The notes beneath the pieces are model-generated. The model was not told the DNA's origin. It ran no database searches and was given only the letters and a program-made list of their open reading frames with translations. Shown one piece after another: positions 7,966 to 51,702 of a DNA stretch of 54,063 bases (position 1 is its first letter; every line of letters begins with the position of its first letter). The stretch is from NCBI GenBank assembly GCA_036651955.1, contig JAVVWU010000006.1, positions 1 through 54,063 on the forward strand, written 5' to 3'. A program made the position numbers and the translations under genes. The stretch comes from Kiritimatiellia bacterium (GTDB lineage Bacteria; Verrucomicrobiota; Kiritimatiellia; RFP12; DVOR01).

Positions 7966-9508
7966 AGTCGGGATCGTCAGTGCGATGACCGGCGTCAGTC
8001 GGCTGTTCGGTCTCGTGCGCGAAATCGTAATGGCGAACTTTTTCGGCACGAGTACGCTGCAAAGCGCCTTTGTCATTGCCTTTCGCATTCCGAATCTCTT
8101 TCGCCGGCTCTTTGGTGAAGGTGCGCTGGGGGCGGCGTTTATTCCGGTCTTTGTGGAAATTGAACGTGTCGAAGGCAAAGCGCGTGCGCAACTTTTTGTC
8201 GCGCGTATTTTAGGGCTGATGATTTGCGTCCTCGGCGCGTTGGTCGCGATCGGTATCGTGCTGAGTTTTGGTGTGGAGCGTTGGTGCGGACCGCTGTCGC
8301 GCTGGACCGAGGCGATGCCGCTGCTGCGGATTATGTTGCCTTATGCCGTGCTGATTTGTGTGGCGGCGATTCTATCGGCAATTCTCAATGTACATGACCG
8401 CTTCGCCATTTCTTCGCTGACGCCGGTACTCCTCAACATTGTTTGGATTCTGGTGCTTTTGGCAGTCTGTCCTTTTTTACCGGAAGAAGGCTATTGGCGC
8501 ATTGGCGCCGTCAGTGTCGGTATTCTTATCAGCGGATTTGTGCAAGTGCTGTTTCAACTGCCTGAATTGAAACGTGTCGGTTATCTCTTCCGGCTCAAAT
8601 TTTCGGGGTGGGGGAGTTCGCGATACGTTCGGCAAGTGTTGCTGCAAATGGGGCCGGCATCGCTCGGGATCGCCTTGGCGCAGATCAATATTTGCATGGA
8701 CGGCTGGCTCGCCTTTTATGGCGCGACGTGGGCGCCGTCGGCATTGGAATATGCCGATCGGATTATCTATCTGCCGCTGGGACTTTTCGCCACGGCGTTT
8801 GCCACCGTCTTACTGCCGACGTACAGTCGTCAGTATGCCGCCGGCGATCTTGCGGAAATGCGCGCCACGATGGATCGCGCCTTGAGCCATTTAATGCTGA
8901 TAATGATTCCGACCGCCGTCGGCTTAATGGTGCTCGCGCTTCCCTTGGTCGCTTTGATTTATCAGCGCGGCGCCTTCGGAGCGGATTCGACGCTGTGGAC
9001 GGCGCGCGCCGTTTTCGCCTATGCGCCGGGGCTGCTCGTCTTTTCCGTCAATAAAGCGGTGGTGCCGGTCTTTTATGCGCAGAAAGATTTACGTACGCCA
9101 GTCATCATTGCCTCGTGCTGTATCTTCGGGAATTTCGCGCTCAATGTGCTGTCGGTCCTTTTCCTGCCCGAAGGATGGCGTCATGTCGGCATTGCCGCGT
9201 CAACGGTCTTTAATTCGCTGCTCAATTCAATCATTCTGATTGCCGTGCTTCATCGTCGCGGATGTGCGCCCGATGTGCGCCGATTGGTCGTGGGCGGCGC
9301 GCAGGCATTGAGTGCTGCCGCGCTGATGGGCGTGGCGGTGTACGGAGCGTTCTCGTTGCTTTCGGCGCATCTTCATCTTCTTTTGAGCGTACCGCTCTGT
9401 ATTTTCGTCGGCGTCGCGGTCTATCTTTTCGCCGCCTTGCTTCTGGCGCCGGCGATGACACGCGATGCGCTCGCCAATCTGCCGCTCTTTCGCCGCCGGA
9501 AACATTAA
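7949..9508 (+). CDS. murJ: Lipid II flippase MurJ (MviN)
   Basis: SRLFGLVRE, AFRIPNLFRRLFGEGALGAAFIP, YADRIIYLPLG; about 14 TM segments. Confidence 0.95.
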   Translation: MRLLNKVGIVSAMTGVSRLFGLVREIVMANFFGTSTLQSAFVIAFRIPNLFRRLFGEGALGAAFIPVFVEIERVEGKARAQLFVARILGLMICVLGALVAIGIVLSFGVERWCGPLSRWTEAMPLLRIMLPYAVLICVAAILSAILNVHDRFAISSLTPVLLNIVWILVLLAVCPFLPEEGYWRIGAVSVGILISGFVQVLFQLPELKRVGYLFRLKFSGWGSSRYVRQVLLQMGPASLGIALAQINICMDGWLAFYGATWAPSALEYADRIIYLPLGLFATAFATVLLPTYSRQYAAGDLAEMRATMDRALSHLMLIMIPTAVGLMVLALPLVALIYQRGAFGADSTLWTARAVFAYAPGLLVFSVNKAVVPVFYAQKDLRTPVIIASCCIFGNFALNVLSVLFLPEGWRHVGIAASTVFNSLLNSIILIAVLHRRGCAPDVRRLVVGGAQALSAAALMGVAVYGAFSLLSAHLHLLLSVPLCIFVGVAVYLFAALLLAPAMTRDALANLPLFRRRKH

Positions 9509-45692: not shown

Positions 45693-45962
45693 CTAGAAGA
45701 GATCGCTATGGGTACCCGTACGTACGAAAATAAGGAATGGCGCACGAAACATATAAATCAAGAGCCAGTCCGGCGCAATATGACATTCATGCGTGTTAAC
45801 ATAATCGCCTGTCAGCACATGGTCTCGGTAAGCAAGGGGGAGTGGATCACCTTGGTGTAAAAGTGTCATCACCCGATCAAGCTTCTCAAGATCCAATCCG
45901 CGCTTCTTTGCTATTTTGTAGTCTTTCCTGAAGCGCGCGGTGACCTTCATTTCGAAGGTCAT
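45693..45962 (-). CDS. yafQ: Type II toxin, YafQ family mRNA interferase
   Basis: FRKDYK, YRDHVLTGDY, ECHIAPDWLLIY, RTGTHSDLF; ATGA overlap with the antitoxin. Confidence 0.93.
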   Translation of the reverse strand: MTFEMKVTARFRKDYKIAKKRGLDLEKLDRVMTLLHQGDPLPLAYRDHVLTGDYVNTHECHIAPDWLLIYMFRAPFLIFVRTGTHSDLF

Positions 45963-46231
45963 TGTCGAAGACTCTTAAGTAAACTTTTCATATTCTTAAC
46001 CGCTTTCACGTCGTCGGTTTTCGCAATTTGATCGGCTTCTTGAAGTGCGGCGACGGTTTCTTTGTTCGGTGTGTCTCGGGTGACAGTAAAGGGTAACCCT
46101 TGCACTCGAATCGCTTGTCGGATGAATACCATAAATGCCGTGGATAAATTCATACCCAAATCTGAAAATAAAGCATTGGCTTCGTGCTTTAATTCTTCTT
46201 CAATGCGTATCGTTAAATTTGTACTTGCCAT
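45959..46231 (-). CDS. dinJ: Type II antitoxin, RelB/DinJ family
   Basis: RHH N-terminus NLTIRIEEELK.EA..LF..LGMNLSTAF.VF..QA...GLPF, then PNKET. Confidence 0.92.
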   Translation of the reverse strand: MASTNLTIRIEEELKHEANALFSDLGMNLSTAFMVFIRQAIRVQGLPFTVTRDTPNKETVAALQEADQIAKTDDVKAVKNMKSLLKSLRQ

Positions 46232-46250
46232 AAGTCCTCTTCCTCTCTTT

Positions 46251-46287
46251 TGCACATGATTATAGCAAGATTGCACAGGAATGCACA
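46251..46287 (-). promoter_or_regulatory. TA promoter (extended -10 TGcTATAAT) with three TGTGCA boxes, a candidate operator
   Basis: Minus-strand TGCTATAAT at 46259-46267; TGCACA at 46251, 46272 and 46282. Confidence 0.55.
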
Positions 46288-46400
46288 TAAATATTATGAT
46301 GGCTGAGCGGAAGAGCGCGGCGCGCGCTCCGTTCGGAGGGCGTGGCGATGAGGAGGGAGCTATTGGTACAGTGGTCGGACGGCAGGGAGGCGTTCGGCAC

Positions 46401-47828
46401 CTATTCGGTGGCGAACGCTGTTTGACCGAGGATATCGTAAACTTGAATGAGACGCGAAATAGGGAGCAAATGTGCGCGGTAAAGTTCCATCACACGTGCC
46501 GCTTGTTCCGGCGTTGCCCCTTCGGCGGCGCAGAAGTCGGCGGCACGCGCAAGGACTTTTTCTTCTACCGCGACATTGAGCAACGAGGCTTCCACCTTTT
46601 CCGGATCGTTGGTTCGTACGGCGGCACGCAGTTCGGGCGCAAGTTCAATGCGTTTGCGGGCAACGACTTTGGAGGCAAAACGGAAGCGGCGATCGAGTGC
46701 CGCCATCGCATCGGCATCGGCATGAAGGGCAGGGCGCGGTTCATTGTCGGCGCCTGTTTCAGCGAGTACCGGAATAACGGTGGTGAGGTAGAAGCGGCGC
46801 AGGAGGCGTGTACGCTCGGTGGCATCGCCATGGACAAACGCCTTTGCGAGCGCTTCGTGCGTCACCGGTTCGACATGAACGTAAAGGGCGCTGTTGGAAT
46901 GGAAGTCGGCGCGTTTGCCAAAGGCTTTGACGAGGTTGCCGTCAAGCGTTGCAATCATTGCGCGTAAGTTGGAGAGTGTCGTGGTTACGGTGCCGGCGAC
47001 CGGTGCCGGCTGCGTGGTAATGGAGTAGGAACCTAAAAGGCGCACTTCGCGAACGAAGGGACGCAGTCCGCCGAGGACTGCCGCCAATGGCAGGGCGCCG
47101 GCGCCAACAAGCAGTTCGAGGAAGAAGGCATATTTCCACTTTTCGCCGGCAATGGGACGACTTTGGATAAAGGTTAAATCAATGTCGCGCAACGTTTCAA
47201 GTACGGAGAGCAACGCTCCCGGACGGTCGTCAATGATGACATAGAGGAGCGCGTGCGTCGGTGGTAATCCAATGGCGGCGACAGGCAAGCGGTGATGTTC
47301 GAGACGGAAAAAGCGCGTGGTGTTTCCTTGCACGTCCTGCACTTCGGGACGGCGGAGACAAAGCCCGTAACGTTCGGCAGTCGTTTCTCCTGCCACGGCG
47401 GCAATGGCGGAATCCAATGAGGCTTGCCGTGCCGCTTCGGCGGTGGAGGAAACAGCTTCTTGCGGAATGTTCGGGTAAATCTTACGGAGCGTTGTCCGGC
47501 ATTGAGAGAGTGCTTCCGCCTTTGACAGAATGAGGGCGATCGGCGTCGTCATATCGCGCGTGAGCAAATGATGATGCACCGGAACGGTACGACATTCCAC
47601 AATCGTCAGAGACGGATAGTCGGCAAGCAAATCCATGACTTCGGTGACCGGACCATGGGTGCTATTTTCAAACGGAATAACGGCGCTACCTTCGGAATCG
47701 CGTGCCACCGAAGCAAAAACGGTGGAGAAATCGGTACACGGCACGAGCATCTCACCGGACAGCGCCATACGGGTGGCGGTGCGGTGCGAAAAGGTTTCTT
47801 CAGGTCCGAGGTAGTAAAGATTCGGCAT
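46401..47828 (-). CDS. pheA: Prephenate dehydratase-ACT fused to a C-terminal eukaryote-type chorismate mutase
   Basis: YLGPEETFS, PFENSTHG, NTTRF, ACT (DDRPGAL...IQSRP...YAFFLE); the C-terminal ~190 aa resemble AroQ-beta. Confidence 0.85.
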   Translation of the reverse strand: MPNLYYLGPEETFSHRTATRMALSGEMLVPCTDFSTVFASVARDSEGSAVIPFENSTHGPVTEVMDLLADYPSLTIVECRTVPVHHHLLTRDMTTPIALILSKAEALSQCRTTLRKIYPNIPQEAVSSTAEAARQASLDSAIAAVAGETTAERYGLCLRRPEVQDVQGNTTRFFRLEHHRLPVAAIGLPPTHALLYVIIDDRPGALLSVLETLRDIDLTFIQSRPIAGEKWKYAFFLELLVGAGALPLAAVLGGLRPFVREVRLLGSYSITTQPAPVAGTVTTTLSNLRAMIATLDGNLVKAFGKRADFHSNSALYVHVEPVTHEALAKAFVHGDATERTRLLRRFYLTTVIPVLAETGADNEPRPALHADADAMAALDRRFRFASKVVARKRIELAPELRAAVRTNDPEKVEASLLNVAVEEKVLARAADFCAAEGATPEQAARVMELYRAHLLPISRLIQVYDILGQTAFATE

Positions 47829-47889
47829 AAGGTCTCCGGCGGCGCGTCGAGAAAGGAGCGGAAGCTCGCGCGAGCTTCCGCTCACTCAA

Positions 47890-48912
47890 TTACTGACGCA
47901 CGGCAACAGCCAAATCATGCCAAGGCGCGATCGCCTTGAGATATTCGCCGAACGTTGCGGAAGGAATCTGCTGCGCGGCATCAGAGAAGGCGTGCTTCGG
48001 ATCGGGATGCGTTTCCACGAGCAATCCGTCACATCCGGCGCCGAGTGCGGCACGCGACAGCGGAACGACGAGTTCCAACTTGCCACCGCCATGGCTCGGG
48101 TCCGCGACGATGGGCAAATGGGTGAGACGCTTCGTTGCGGCGAGTGCGCCCAAATCGAGGCAGTTGCGCGTAATCGTCTCATAGGTGCGGATACCGCGTT
48201 CGCACAAAATGACATCGTTGCATCCGTTCGCCATCAGATATTCGGCACTCTGGAGCCATTCCTCGACCGTTCCGGCGATGCCGCGTTTGAGGATGATTGG
48301 CTTTCCTGCTTTGCCGAGGTATTCGAGTAAATCGTAGTTCTGCGAATTACGTGCGCCGACTTGAAAGACGTCGGTGACATCCATCAGTCCTTCAATTTGA
48401 TTGGGTCCCGGAACTTCGGTGATGAAAGCGACCATGGGGAAGTCTTTCTTCACTTCGCGCATCACACGGATACCTTCTTCCTTGAGTCCTTGGAAGTCGT
48501 ACGTTGACGTCCGCGGCTTGTAGACCATGGCGCGAATGACGTGAATGTTGAGCGCGACAAGATCGGCGACAACGGCGTGGAATTGGTCGTAACTTTCGAC
48601 GGCGCACGGTCCTGCCATAATCGGAATGTTGCCACCGCCGATTTTGGTTCCTTTGATATCAATGATCGTGTCTTCTTTTTTGAAGTCGCGAGAGACGAGT
48701 TTGTACTTTTTACTCACGTGAATGATTTCCTGTACGGTTTCGAGTGTTTCGAGTTGAGCCACAGTTTGTGGATTGACTTCGCTGCCGATACAGGCGATGA
48801 CGGTCTGCTCGGCACCAGTGGTGACGCGCGGTTGATATCGAAGCGAGGAAATCCAATCGCAAATGGTTTGAACGTCTGCTTGTGTTGCTGTCGGTTTCAT
48901 TACGATAATCAT
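47890..48912 (-). CDS. aroF: DAHP synthase type I-beta with N-terminal regulatory domain
   Basis: MIIVMK N-domain, AGPCAVES, KPRTS, QVGARNSQN, ILKRG, CERGIRT, DPSHG. Confidence 0.95.
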   Translation of the reverse strand: MIIVMKPTATQADVQTICDWISSLRYQPRVTTGAEQTVIACIGSEVNPQTVAQLETLETVQEIIHVSKKYKLVSRDFKKEDTIIDIKGTKIGGGNIPIMAGPCAVESYDQFHAVVADLVALNIHVIRAMVYKPRTSTYDFQGLKEEGIRVMREVKKDFPMVAFITEVPGPNQIEGLMDVTDVFQVGARNSQNYDLLEYLGKAGKPIILKRGIAGTVEEWLQSAEYLMANGCNDVILCERGIRTYETITRNCLDLGALAATKRLTHLPIVADPSHGGGKLELVVPLSRAALGAGCDGLLVETHPDPKHAFSDAAQQIPSATFGEYLKAIAPWHDLAVAVRQ

Positions 48913-48936
48913 CGTCGTGTTCTTTCTGTGTTAACG

Positions 48937-48968
48937 AAAAGCCGCACCCCTGTGATTGGGAGCGCGGC
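48937..48968 (-). terminator. Attenuator terminator upstream of aroF
   Basis: Minus strand GCCGCGCTCC-CAATCACA-GGGGTGCGGC-TTTT, ending 24 nt before the aroF ATG. Confidence 0.75.
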
Positions 48969-49001
48969 CGTTCAAACTGTCATCCTTGTTCGCTTTAGCA
49001 A

Positions 49002-49070
49002 TCAGCGGATGACCGGAGCGGCGCGCCGGGTTCCAAAATAAAGGCTAAAGTAAAAGGCTTTTGTGTTCAC
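49002..49070 (-). CDS. Phe/Tyr-rich attenuator leader peptide (22 aa)
   Basis: GTG AAC ACA AAA GCC TTT TAC TTT AGC CTT TAT TTT ... TGA = MNTKAFYFSLYFGTRRAAPVIR*. Confidence 0.78.
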   Translation of the reverse strand: MNTKAFYFSLYFGTRRAAPVIR

Positions 49071-49076
49071 GCGGCT

Positions 49077-49106
49077 ACAATAACAAAGCGTCTCTTGCGC
49101 TGTCAA
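49077..49106 (-). promoter_or_regulatory. Sigma70-type promoter of the aroF-pheA leader
   Basis: TTGACA-18 nt-(TGT)TATTGT, 6 nt upstream of the leader GTG. Confidence 0.7.
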
Positions 49107-49121
49107 CGCTTTTTTCATCGG

Positions 49122-49511
49122 TTAATCGCAATCGAAGGGAATAAATTCCCACACCGGTGCTTTATCGCCGACCGCGTACGCGGCGCGTAAACGTCCGTCA
49201 GCGGTAAAGAGCAAGCGCATACCACGAATCGCTGTTTGCGTACGTCCCAAACGAAAGTTCAGTCCGGAATAGCCTAAGAGAAGTTCACCGCCTGCCGTTT
49301 CAGTTCCCGACCATACGGCGTCAAAACCTCCTTGCGGCAAGGGGCGTACAGCGGTAGGATTGCCGAGACGGGCGACCGTATCAAAGTAGGTCGTGCCTTT
49401 GGCAGGGATTGTCGCATCGACGGCGAAGCCTGACTTGCGCGTCAAACAGCCGCTGCCGAGAAGGCAGGCGAGGAGAAAAAGAAGCGCGTACAGCGGGCAA
49501 CGGCGACTCAT
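49122..49511 (-). CDS. Lipoprotein, BamE/SmpA-like
   Basis: Lipobox LGSG|C; KGTTYFDTVARLGNP. Confidence 0.65.
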   Translation of the reverse strand: MSRRCPLYALLFLLACLLGSGCLTRKSGFAVDATIPAKGTTYFDTVARLGNPTAVRPLPQGGFDAVWSGTETAGGELLLGYSGLNFRLGRTQTAIRGMRLLFTADGRLRAAYAVGDKAPVWEFIPFDCD

Positions 49512-49930
49512 GGCGTTACCTCGCGGAATTCCAAAATCTCCGGCGCACCCAAAGCGCGACGGCGCACGCGTGAGATTTGCGTCACGATACCGTCTTTGAA
49601 ACGAATCGAAATATCATGCGCAATCACCGTATTCGTCTGTTCAAAAATCGGCGTGAGAATATAGCCGAGCTGCAATTTCCAAATGCGCGTATCTTGTGAA
49701 CAGTACCGTAACGATTCGGCGGAGAGATAGGCAGGCGAATCGTCCGCTCTTCCGACCGGTGGCGGCAGACCGAGCTTTTGTAGGACTTCGCGATCGGTCG
49801 TGACGCCCGGCACAATCCATGAAGTCTCAAGCTTTTCGATGCGCTCATTCGACTTCACGCGACTAATGGAGCAGCCGCTACCGAGAAGGCAGAGACATAA
49901 ACAGGTGAAAATTATCCAAAGCTTAGACAC
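49508..49930 (-). CDS. Lipoprotein, BamE/SmpA-like
   Basis: Lipobox LGSG|C; IVPGVTTDREVLQKLGLP. Confidence 0.7.
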   Translation of the reverse strand: MSKLWIIFTCLCLCLLGSGCSISRVKSNERIEKLETSWIVPGVTTDREVLQKLGLPPPVGRADDSPAYLSAESLRYCSQDTRIWKLQLGYILTPIFEQTNTVIAHDISIRFKDGIVTQISRVRRRALGAPEILEFREVTP

Positions 49931-49933
49931 AGA

Positions 49934-50320
49934 TTAGTCCCCAAACGGCCACGTTTCCCATTCGACTTCTTGTTGCGGTGCCGAATGAACGGCTTGCACG
50001 ATACCGTTGGCATCTGCCAACGCATAAACGGCAGAGAAATACGAATTGGTTTTGGTAAAGGTGACAAGAATCAGCGAGAAGCCTTCCGTCTTGGCGTCAC
50101 CATAGGCAAACGAATAAACGACACGTCCATCTTTGAGCGGAATAATGGCGGTCGGCATCGTTCCGAAAAGTTTGGGAAGCGTGTCGGCGCGCGTTTGACC
50201 GAGGACAATATTAGCGGTTCGTGTCCGCACCGCTACGTCATTGATTTTCCCGCGCGTCCAAATACAGCCGGGCGCAACGATTAAAAGTGCGAGAAGTAAA
50301 ACTGGAAGAAAGAAACGCAT
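49934..50320 (-). CDS. Lipoprotein, BamE/SmpA-like
   Basis: Lipobox VAPG|C; IVLGQTRADTLPKLFGTMP. Confidence 0.7.
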   Translation of the reverse strand: MRFFLPVLLLALLIVAPGCIWTRGKINDVAVRTRTANIVLGQTRADTLPKLFGTMPTAIIPLKDGRVVYSFAYGDAKTEGFSLILVTFTKTNSYFSAVYALADANGIVQAVHSAPQQEVEWETWPFGD

Positions 50321-50331
50321 CGCCCACCTCG

Positions 50332-51594
50332 TTAAATAAGTTTCAAAATACGAACATCGCGCGTTTCCAAATGCTTGACGTGCGCTTCGCCGGCGACAAC
50401 GTCGTCCGGTCCGAGATAGATCGCCTCAAGGGCGGAAGAAGCGCCTGCTTTGGAAAAGAACTGTTTCGGCTTCTGCGCGACGATCGACAGATCGACGGCG
50501 TGCCCTTCGGCACGCAGCTGTGCGGCAAGAGCAATCGCCGCGTCACGCTGTTCAATCGCCATATAGCCGAGAATGAACCCTTTGCGCGTGACAGGACAGC
50601 TTTCGCCTAAAAGGTCGTGGAGCAGCTCGGCGACGACGACATCGCCGAAGCCCATCCCCACTGCCGCCGTCGGCGCACCGCCGACGCGTTCCAATAGCGA
50701 ATCGTAACGTCCGCCGCCGAAGAGCGCACGGAATTTACGCTGCACGTCAAATGCTTCAAACACAATGCCGGTGTAATAAGAAAGACCGCGAATAATCGCA
50801 ATGTCAAACTGTAATAAAGCGTGGTATCCCATCGATGCCGCGATGGTGAAGAGGGCGCGCAAGTTTGCGAGCGCCGCGCTGTCGGGCGCGACGAGCGCCG
50901 CCACTTCTTCTAACGTCGTGACCGAGAGCAGTTCAAACGTCTTGGCGACTGCCGTCTCGTTCAATCCTTCGGCGCGGAGCAAAGCGCCAATTTCTTCATC
51001 GGAAATCTTGCCGCGTTTATCGAGCGCGATAAAGACTGCGCTATGCTGTGCTGCCGGAATCCCGCTGCCGGCGAGAAGTTCGCCGAGAAGTGCGCGACTG
51101 CTGACGTGAATCCGCCATGCCGGATCGGGCATTCCCATCGTGCGCATCGCCTCGACGGCGGCGCCGAGGAGCTCCGCTTCGCACAAGACCTCTTCCGACC
51201 CGATGATGTCCATATTGAGCTGATAATGTTCACGCTTGCGCCCGCGCGTCATCCGTTCGTAACGGAAACACTGAGCCACGGTGAACCACTTGATCGGGAA
51301 TGGCATCCGGCTTTGACGCGCCGCCACCATTCGTGCAAGCGTCGGCGTCATTTCCGGACGGAGTGCAAGCTTGCGTCCTGATTTATCTTCAAAGGCATAA
51401 ATTTGTTCAGAGACTTCTTCACCGCTTTTGCGTTGAAGCAGCTCGAGCGATTCGACGACACAGGCATCGTACGGTTGGAATCCAAACCGTTCGGCGGCGG
51501 CACGCCACGCATCAAAAATGCGGTTGCGCCAAACCATATCTTCCGGATAGAAGTCGCGCATTCCACGCGGTGCTTCAAAAGTATTTTCGCTCAT
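50332..51594 (-). CDS. hisS: Histidine--tRNA ligase
   Basis: PRGMRDFYP, LRPEMTPTLAR, FRYER, REHYQ, RGLSYYTG, GGGRYD. Confidence 0.97.
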   Translation of the reverse strand: MSENTFEAPRGMRDFYPEDMVWRNRIFDAWRAAAERFGFQPYDACVVESLELLQRKSGEEVSEQIYAFEDKSGRKLALRPEMTPTLARMVAARQSRMPFPIKWFTVAQCFRYERMTRGRKREHYQLNMDIIGSEEVLCEAELLGAAVEAMRTMGMPDPAWRIHVSSRALLGELLAGSGIPAAQHSAVFIALDKRGKISDEEIGALLRAEGLNETAVAKTFELLSVTTLEEVAALVAPDSAALANLRALFTIAASMGYHALLQFDIAIIRGLSYYTGIVFEAFDVQRKFRALFGGGRYDSLLERVGGAPTAAVGMGFGDVVVAELLHDLLGESCPVTRKGFILGYMAIEQRDAAIALAAQLRAEGHAVDLSIVAQKPKQFFSKAGASSALEAIYLGPDDVVAGEAHVKHLETRDVRILKLI

Positions 51595-51702
51595 CGCTGC
51601 TCCTCGCTATGCTTTATGTGCCGGCGCTTGAAGCGTCGCCGCGTCGCCCACCGAAGCGCTCCTCCTTGCTGAGGATTGAACTTCGGCGGCTTCGGGGAGA
51701 GA

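Follow-up and report, generated by a model that had tools for sequence, protein, structure and literature searches.

This analysis concerns the leader region of a two-gene operon, aroF-pheA, on the minus strand of a 54,063-nucleotide stretch of DNA from a Kiritimatiellia bacterium (contig JAVVWU010000006.1 of assembly GCA_036651955.1). The window, as used below, means this whole stretch at its full length, and its features lie on the minus strand unless another strand is given. The first gene, aroF (47890–48912), encodes a type I-beta 3-deoxy-D-arabino-heptulosonate-7-phosphate (DAHP) synthase with an N-terminal ferredoxin-like regulatory domain, and its protein matches DAHP_synth_1 (6.5e-63), DAHP_snth_FXD (2.8e-16) and NF006421 (397.5 bits against a cut-off of 335). 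These matches agree with the assignment made in an earlier reading of the same DNA from its letters alone, referred to here as the original prediction. The operon ends with its second gene, pheA (46401–47885), which encodes prephenate dehydratase (PDT, 6.4e-44). Upstream of aroF lie a putative promoter, a short open reading frame (ORF) rich in Phe and Tyr codons and a set of competing RNA structures, and the element that they form is very probably a ribosome-mediated (leader-peptide) transcription attenuator of aroF-pheA.

The leader ORF (49002–49070) has 22 codons and a stop, with a GTG start at 49070 and a TGA at 49004–49002, and would specify the peptide MNTKAFYFSLYFGTRRAAPVIR. Its codons 6–12 (49035–49055) read TTT TAC TTT AGC CTT TAT TTT, or F Y F S L Y F, so that five of the seven are Phe or Tyr codons, as originally read. 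The sigma-70-type promoter (49077–49106) consists of TTGACA (49106–49101), an 18-nt spacer and TGnTATTGT, with the -10 hexamer TATTGT at 49082–49077. It scores 10 of 12 matches in a promoter scan, with a TG one base 5' of the -10 box. Six nucleotides (AGCCGC) separate the -10 box from the GTG (49070–49068), and the motifs GGAG, GAGG, AGGA and AAGG are absent between the two. The original prediction had named TTGACA-18-TATTGT, a GTG 6 nt later and the lack of a Shine-Dalgarno (SD) sequence, and all of these elements are found where it had placed them on the minus strand. From this geometry, transcription is predicted to start at the G of the GTG (49070).

The leader RNA is numbered here from the G of the GTG, so that subtracting n from 49071 gives the window position of nucleotide n. 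The Phe/Tyr-codon region (49032–49058) forms segment 1, which is predicted to pair with segment 2 (48983–49010) when it is free of ribosomes (-15.0 kcal/mol, z -1.79). The antiterminator, or 2:3 pairing (48961–49027; -31.2 kcal/mol, z -2.16), joins the end of the leader ORF (n44–64, 49027–49007) to n86–110 (48985–48961), and its 3' arm is made up of GGAUGAC and CGGCCGCGCU of the terminator 5' arm. Within this pairing, GTCATCC (49013–49007) is the exact complement of GGATGAC (48985–48979), and the GC-rich GGCGCGCCG (49027–49019) pairs with CGG-C-CGCGCU (48970–48961), taking 8 of the 11 nucleotides of the terminator 5' arm. The leader stop codon (n67–69) falls within the antiterminator helix. 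The predicted intrinsic terminator, or 3:4 pairing (48933–48969), combines a stem of 11 pairs, of which 8 are G-C, with an 8-nt loop, followed by UUUUCGUU. Its stem-loop extends over 48969–48940 (n102–131) and is followed by TTTCGTT, with the aroF start at 48912. Both the pairing of the leader end with a GGATGAC region that overlaps the terminator arm, and the GC hairpin with a U-tract just 5' of aroF, had been proposed before and are borne out by these positions.

Compared with shuffled sequences, the fold of the 141-nt leader has a z of -2.5, with 2 of 200 shuffles as good, and that of its 3' 101 nt has a z of -3.5, with 0 of 200. The hairpin is the only terminator-like site in the 2 kb scanned. 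The motif hits taken alone are at chance level over these 2 kb, with two promoter-like hits against 1.2 expected and one terminator-like hit against 2.7 expected. Promoter and terminator motifs prove nothing by themselves, since such hits are no commoner here than in shuffles, and it is conservation that places the attenuator above chance.

Conservation and covariation of the leader

Forty relatives were searched with AroF, upstream regions were extracted and 29 of them were examined for a leader, defined as a short ORF with a Phe/Tyr run of at least four in seven codons. Such an ORF has been found 82–117 nt 5' of aroF in 27 of the 29 regions, the misses being L025 and L029, and in 23 of 23 regions from the genus. 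Phe/Tyr codon clusters upstream of aroF in related genomes, which the original prediction had put forward as a check, are thus present throughout the genus regions as well as in other families. In a class-wide sample (95 aroF upstream regions fetched, 85 analysable), two more congeners and one sister genus carry the leader; all 25 congeneric genomes in which this region is assembled have it before aroF. The genus leader ORFs have 20–22 codons and an ATG start that aligns with the GTG of the window. All 19 distinct genus peptides hold at least three Phe and at least one Tyr within their first 13 codons, and TTT/TTC and TAC/TAT switch synonymously among them. BLAST similarity to the window starts at query positions 57–70 in 18 of 22 matches and further on in another 3, and reaches through the terminator, and the sequence 5' of the promoter is unrelated between the window and its relatives. 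Since the similarity starts at or just after the start codon, the conserved unit is the leader, travelling with aroF, and not the upstream gene. In the X1 contig run, 43 differences are seen over 5.4 kb and 0 in 48628–49152, where about 4 would be expected; no conclusion is drawn from this.

The position of the promoter is conserved as well. In 24 of 24 genus loci with upstream sequence, TTGAC-17/18-TATnnT ends 6–11 nt 5' of the leader start codon, at distances of 6 nt (n = 1), 7 nt (n = 4), 8 nt (n = 7), 9 nt (n = 2), 10 nt (n = 6) and 11 nt (n = 4), and these promoters are often preceded by an A-run. The leader of a second family shows cttgaca-N18/19-gattNt with a GTG 5 nt further on. With a -10 box this close to the start codon, an SD sequence has no room on transcripts from the leader promoter. 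Among 1171 long ORFs of the genome, SD-like motifs peak sharply 5–10 nt 5' of the first ATG, and TANNNT exactly 6 nt 5' of the first ATG shows a small excess (44 against about 20), which indicates that leaderless starts exist in this genome as an exception. The approximately 24 long ORFs above background with TANNNT ending 6 nt before the first ATG form a small genome-wide candidate set of leaderless genes. Judged by these patterns, the leader appears to be a minority start type in a genome that mostly uses SD starts, and the position of its promoter appears to be selected. The apparent leaderlessness claimed in the original prediction is supported by this conserved promoter-to-start distance, and the leader ORF may, somewhat more probably than its opposite, be leaderless or preceded by a 5' untranslated region (UTR) no longer than 5 nt.

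In other families of the order and class, the leaders can no longer be aligned and the layout is the same: the peptides MNSWHQTNVYFYFRLPDTRFRSVR, MNLPRYYFSFIFRSPGARSGTTR, MNHNNSYFYYFSFTKPSQAWSFCRG and MYSRTNAAYFYFWYFAPDPG are each followed by a hairpin and a T-run. These leaders sometimes contain Trp as well (...AWFYFYF..., ...SYWFGYF..., ...AAYFYFWYF...), and the longest aromatic runs in relatives reach 7 of 7, against 5 of 7 in the window. Among the 85 analysable class-wide regions, a short ORF with at least five F/Y/W in seven codons occurs in 8, against 0 reverse complements and 0 shuffles; with at least four in seven, it occurs in 13, against 3 and 1 in the respective controls. GTG starts recur among aromatic leaders, being present in three of the four leaders of family f40 (L124–L126; L127 has ATG) and in L117, a Verrucomicrobiota metagenome-assembled genome with the aromatic leader MNNAAWSQYFFYWFSLSAHLRLR. 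A distinct conserved ORF of about 32–45 codons is found 5' of aroF in six loci from other families of the class (L129, L130, L141, L143, L152 and L153). It carries an EFYRFNRVT- or HFYQFNRSL-like motif ahead of a hydrophobic tail, ends 0–24 nt before the aroF start and comes without a terminator; it could encode a small membrane protein or be a translationally coupled aromatic sensor of another kind.

The competing structures have been followed in a set of 35 leaders. All of them have a predicted antiterminator (mean energy -29.9 kcal/mol; mean z -2.28, with z below -2 in 21), which takes on average 69% of the terminator 5' arm. A G+C-rich hairpin followed by a T-run is likewise present in 35 of 35, with a mean terminator energy of -21.0 kcal/mol, and all 21 aligned genus sequences keep the terminator stem. 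The segment 1:2 pairing has a mean z of -2.07, with z below -1.64 in 20 of the 35. In the leaders examined, the stop codon always lies inside the antiterminator.

The outer antiterminator helix is 93.6% paired in the 21 genus sequences, against 33–42% when the partner is slid by 1–3 columns. A compensatory change is seen in L011, L017 and L027, which have GCGCGGCG with CGCCGCGC, where the remaining genus sequences have GCGCGCCG with CGGCCGCGC. Between families the arms differ strongly, as in CCGGACAC-CGGUUC with GAACCG-GUGUCCGG. The words paired in 1:2 also compensate between subgroups, with CUUUAGC:GCUAAAG in the window, CUUCUAC:GUAGAAG in L002 and GCUUUGGC:GCCAAGGC elsewhere. An alignment-free swap test, in which leader 3' ends are matched with terminator 5' arms, gives a mean of -20.6 kcal/mol for own pairs and -13.3 kcal/mol for cross-group pairs. 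With one representative for each of seven groups, none of 1854 derangements attains the observed sum; the fixed span taken in the test suits groups L123 and L138 poorly. The inner antiterminator helix is 63–68% paired in the MAFFT alignment, where it is out of register between subgroups, and RNAalifold on this alignment recovered the terminator and a small GC hairpin only. The GC-rich arms hardly vary among the genus sequences, even at wobble positions, which points to constraint on the RNA and leaves few informative pairs.

Proposed mechanism and competing explanations

In the proposed mechanism, the RNA would start at the GTG or a few bases from it, and the 22-codon ORF would be translated without an SD sequence. 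Under a shortage of charged tRNA-Phe, and probably of charged tRNA-Tyr, the ribosome would stall on codons 6–12 and leave the end of the ORF (49027–49007) naked. This stretch could then pair with 48985–48961 and sequester the terminator 5' arm, so that RNA polymerase would read into aroF and pheA. When the tRNAs are charged, the ribosome would reach the stop codon inside the antiterminator and cover the antiterminator 5' arm, allowing the terminator (48969–48940) and its U-tract to form and transcription to end about 20 nt before aroF. When nothing is translated, pairing of the Phe/Tyr codons with the stretch after the stop codon could hold segment 2. The original prediction had likewise supposed that stalling on Phe or Tyr frees the antiterminator and that full translation permits the terminator, and the conserved leader ORF, Phe/Tyr run, terminator and competing helix, with their covarying arms, speak for it. 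Taken as a whole, the attenuator laid out here, with a leaderless or near-leaderless start, is the best explanation of the data, with a probability of about 0.8. Sensing of Tyr in addition to Phe is an evenly balanced question.

The geometry of a modelled ribosome and the pairing probabilities are consistent with these steps. With codons 6–11 in the A site the antiterminator is free, and with codon 12 there its first 2–3 pairs are clipped. With the ribosome at the stop codon, the antiterminator 5' arm of the window is covered and a structure of -2.2 kcal/mol is left; over the sequences shown (7 of 25) the residual structure is -1 to -5 kcal/mol. Ribosome blocks were modelled both in equilibrium folds of the full leader and in folds of transcripts ending before the terminator 3' arm. 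Folding with ribosome masking, which the original prediction had suggested as a check, gives a divided answer: in the shortened transcripts the antiterminator is abolished by a ribosome at the stop, as expected, and in the full leader the terminator dominates in every state.

Several observations weigh against the mechanism or parts of it. The equilibrium fold of the full window leader gives the terminator a probability of 0.92–0.94 in all five modelled ribosome states, that is, no switch; since the terminator dominates at equilibrium, the model needs kinetic, co-transcriptional folding, as for trp. The shortened, ribosome-free transcript of the window still forms the antiterminator (0.79 paired). 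Here 1:2 is not favoured thermodynamically over the antiterminator, and RNA that is not translated might read through and not terminate. Covariation is limited within the genus, where 5 of the 12 outer-helix pairs never vary. The -10 box lies 10–11 nt from the ATG in 10 of the 24 genus loci, a spacing that suggests a 5' UTR of 3–5 nt, and not a strictly leaderless RNA, in those loci. The window leader starts with GTG, where the other 24 genus leaders examined have ATG; in Escherichia coli a GUG at the 5' terminus initiates leaderless translation poorly, yet it is used in mycobacteria and Deinococcus. Finally, three RNA runs with a matching species label have 0 reads on 46300–51700 and so provide no test of expression.

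The same attenuator could operate without being leaderless, if the RNA began further 5', at a different promoter or as read-through from the ORF at 49122–49511, and was leadered, with possible re-initiation at an ATG at 49118. This ATG lies 3 nt past the TAA of the upstream ORF and in frame with the leader, which it lengthens to 38 codons (49002–49118; MKKALTAQETLCYCSR followed by the leader), and on read-through transcripts re-initiation there would bring ribosomes to the same Phe/Tyr codons and give a 38-residue peptide. The upstream ORF runs in the same direction up to 49122, the GTG is unusual in its family as noted above, and the start of the leader transcript is itself predicted, all of which would suit such an arrangement. 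It is nevertheless unlikely, given that the ATG at 49118 is not shared by the relatives, whose own ATG aligns with the GTG and whose sequences are unrelated 5' of the promoter, that a strong promoter stands 6–11 nt from the start in all 24 genus loci, and that no SD-like motif precedes the GTG, unlike in most genes of the genome. A chance ORF beside an ordinary terminator of the upstream gene would account for promoter-like and terminator-like matches that are no commoner than in shuffles. It would leave unexplained a leader conserved in at least 25 genus genomes and several families, which stays with aroF as the upstream neighbour varies between loci, and it is contradicted by the swap test; only one further short ORF with five Phe/Tyr in seven codons came out of a crude genome-wide scan of 872 terminator-like sites. 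The likelihood of such a coincidence is close to nil.

Terminator and antiterminator pairs are common to mechanisms triggered by ligands, tRNAs, proteins and ribosomes, so that the structures do not tell the trigger, and the switch might be run by a riboswitch, a T-box or an RNA-binding protein such as TRAP or PyrR, with the short ORF incidental. A search of 48000–50000 with all 4227 Rfam models at E up to 10 returned two unrelated small RNA matches only (E 1.1 and 1.8), hence no family at E < 1 on the window leader, and the leaders of 11 relatives gave no Rfam match; the T-box model matched neither set. The ORF, its frame, its length and its Phe/Tyr run are kept where the nucleotides are unalignable, which a non-coding switch would not need, and the constant placement of the stop codon within the antiterminator points the same way, making a trigger of this kind very improbable. 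Control might instead be translational, with leader translation altering ribosome access to the aroF start, as for mycobacterial Cys leaders, and with a hairpin that is not a terminator. Intrinsic termination in this lineage is a prediction, and mycobacterial leaderless attenuators act by sequestration of the ribosome-binding site (RBS) (10.1101/834739). The G+C-rich hairpin and T-run of all 35 leaders, and the end of the hairpin about 20–30 nt before the aroF ATG in the genus, clear of the ribosome-binding region of aroF, make translational control very improbable. The ribosome-mediated transcription attenuator is preferred to these alternatives.

Operon context and wider occurrence

A PDT gene follows aroF in six of seven leader-bearing relatives checked, L023 being the exception, and no PDT gene lies 3' of aroF in L025 and L029, the two loci checked that are without a convincing leader. 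The PheA of the window has 494 amino acids, with PDT and ACT-like parts at residues 22–290 and a C-terminal part, at about 362–482, that is weakly chorismate mutase-like (CM_2 23.4 bits against a cut-off of 27; TIGR01802 27 bits). The same weak match is found in the congeners L002 and L021, and if this part is real, the domain order would be the reverse of that in the E. coli P-protein. Directly 3' of pheA lies a pair of RelB antitoxin and YafQ toxin genes (45693–46288). On the other side, between hisS (50332–51594) and the aroF leader, three tightly packed ORFs of 129, 140 and 128 amino acids occupy 49122–50320; none of them has a Pfam match, and the 129-residue ORF has no NCBIfam match either.

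Aromatic leaders have also been sought more broadly, in 80 type I-beta aroF loci of many phyla with 39–48% identity to AroF. An aromatic-rich short ORF lies 5' of aroF in 24 of these 80 loci, against 7 and 9 in controls. Among 17 of these leaders that were inspected, some have an SD-like motif and some have a -10 box 7–11 nt from the ATG. Aromatic leaders with a -10-like box at this distance and no SD-like motif are seen in L089 (Brachyspira), L105 and L054 (Acidobacteriota), L091 (Geomonas) and L050 (Clostridiales), and aromatic leaders with an SD-like motif in the clostridial L100, L103 and L108. These counts suggest that type I-beta aroF genes are often preceded by aromatic leaders and that Rfam lacks them; a curated family would improve genome annotation.

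Within the genome itself, the crude scan of terminator-like sites found no convincing other attenuator. The other short ORF with 5/7 Phe/Tyr before a terminator-like hairpin, on contig C28 with a T-run near 9103 on the plus strand, starts with GTG, has 36 codons and is followed by an ORF of 152 amino acids. Trp-, Cys- and Thr-rich candidates were rejected on inspection by eye, two of them lying apparently inside longer reading frames and the third resembling an end-of-gene terminator.

More tentatively, and with the balance tilting slightly against it, the leader could be one branch, that of the Kiritimatiellia, within a very large and uncatalogued superfamily of aromatic (Phe/Tyr/Trp) leader-peptide attenuators on type I-beta DAHP synthase genes of many phyla, with an obligately leaderless sensor ORF in this branch. 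In that case the first ribosome would load on the 5'-terminal AUG or GUG as it leaves the polymerase, coupling transcription to translation by construction in a lineage whose other genes almost all have SD starts, and leaderless initiation would be a selected design feature of the attenuator and not a habit of the lineage. For an uncultured gut lineage, the leader itself offers a concrete regulatory element of aromatic amino-acid synthesis that can be put to the test. As a well-conserved example it also joins the few leader peptides that are apparently translated from leaderless RNA, here in an SD-reliant genome, and it thereby bears on the coupling of the pioneer ribosome to RNA polymerase.

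Comparison with known systems

The mechanism proposed is a textbook one; the leader is probably a genuine, well-conserved and uncatalogued attenuator, with its probable leaderless start as the most interesting feature. A full-text literature search found no leader-peptide attenuation described for Kiritimatiellia or Verrucomicrobiota. The original prediction had held that no such element was described in bacteria of the Planctomycetes-Verrucomicrobia-Chlamydiae group, and this part of its claim agrees with the search; the novelty was overrated in view of the precedents in Corynebacterium glutamicum (aroR), Deinococcus and mycobacteria discussed below.

In its predicted layout and logic the leader corresponds to the enterobacterial pheL-pheA and trpL systems, which likewise have the regulatory codons in segment 1, the stop codon beside or inside segment 2, a 2:3 antiterminator and a 3:4 intrinsic terminator. 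As in pheL-pheA, a prephenate dehydratase gene would be controlled. There is no similarity in sequence or by covariance model, and neither the window nor the leaders of the 11 relatives reach the gathering score of Phe_leader, Trp_leader or the other Rfam leader families. In place of a pure Phe run there is a mixture of Phe and Tyr codons here, aroF comes first in the operon, and the leader has no SD sequence, with a promoter abutting the start codon.

The C. glutamicum aroR leader reportedly goes back to the study of Neshat et al. 2014, and in the same species the ilvB leader peptide is said to be made without an RBS (Morbach 2000). Two further sources describe aroR as a Phe-Tyr-Phe leader peptide before aroF, on which ribosome stalling under Phe limitation enhances transcription (PMC4046766, PMC11802643). 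The two leaders are alike in having a short Phe-Tyr-Phe ORF before a DAHP synthase gene. They belong to different phyla. The run is longer here (5 of 7 codons, rising to 7 of 7 among relatives), and the operon is aroF-pheA with a type I-beta DAHP synthase that carries the FXD domain. According to PMC11802643, aroR transcription is changed by Phe limitation and not by Tyr availability; this counts against Tyr sensing, and dual sensing in the present leader cannot be assumed. For the Actinobacteria, a 2005 study reports no Phe/Tyr RNA elements found (PMC1262725).

Amino-acid-rich leaders on leaderless transcripts have been described in two other groups. In Deinococcus deserti, 14 leader peptides have been predicted on leaderless transcripts with mapped starts (PMC4007540), and in mycobacteria, leaderless polycysteine short ORFs act as attenuators (10.1101/834739). 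As in the window, where the start is a predicted one, these systems place an amino-acid-rich sensor ORF at the 5' end of the transcript, need no RBS for it and have biosynthetic genes downstream. Deinococcus and mycobacteria use leaderless mRNAs very widely, whereas the present genome relies mostly on SD starts, and the mycobacterial elements act on translation through RBS sequestration, in contrast to the terminator through which the aroF-pheA leader is predicted to act.

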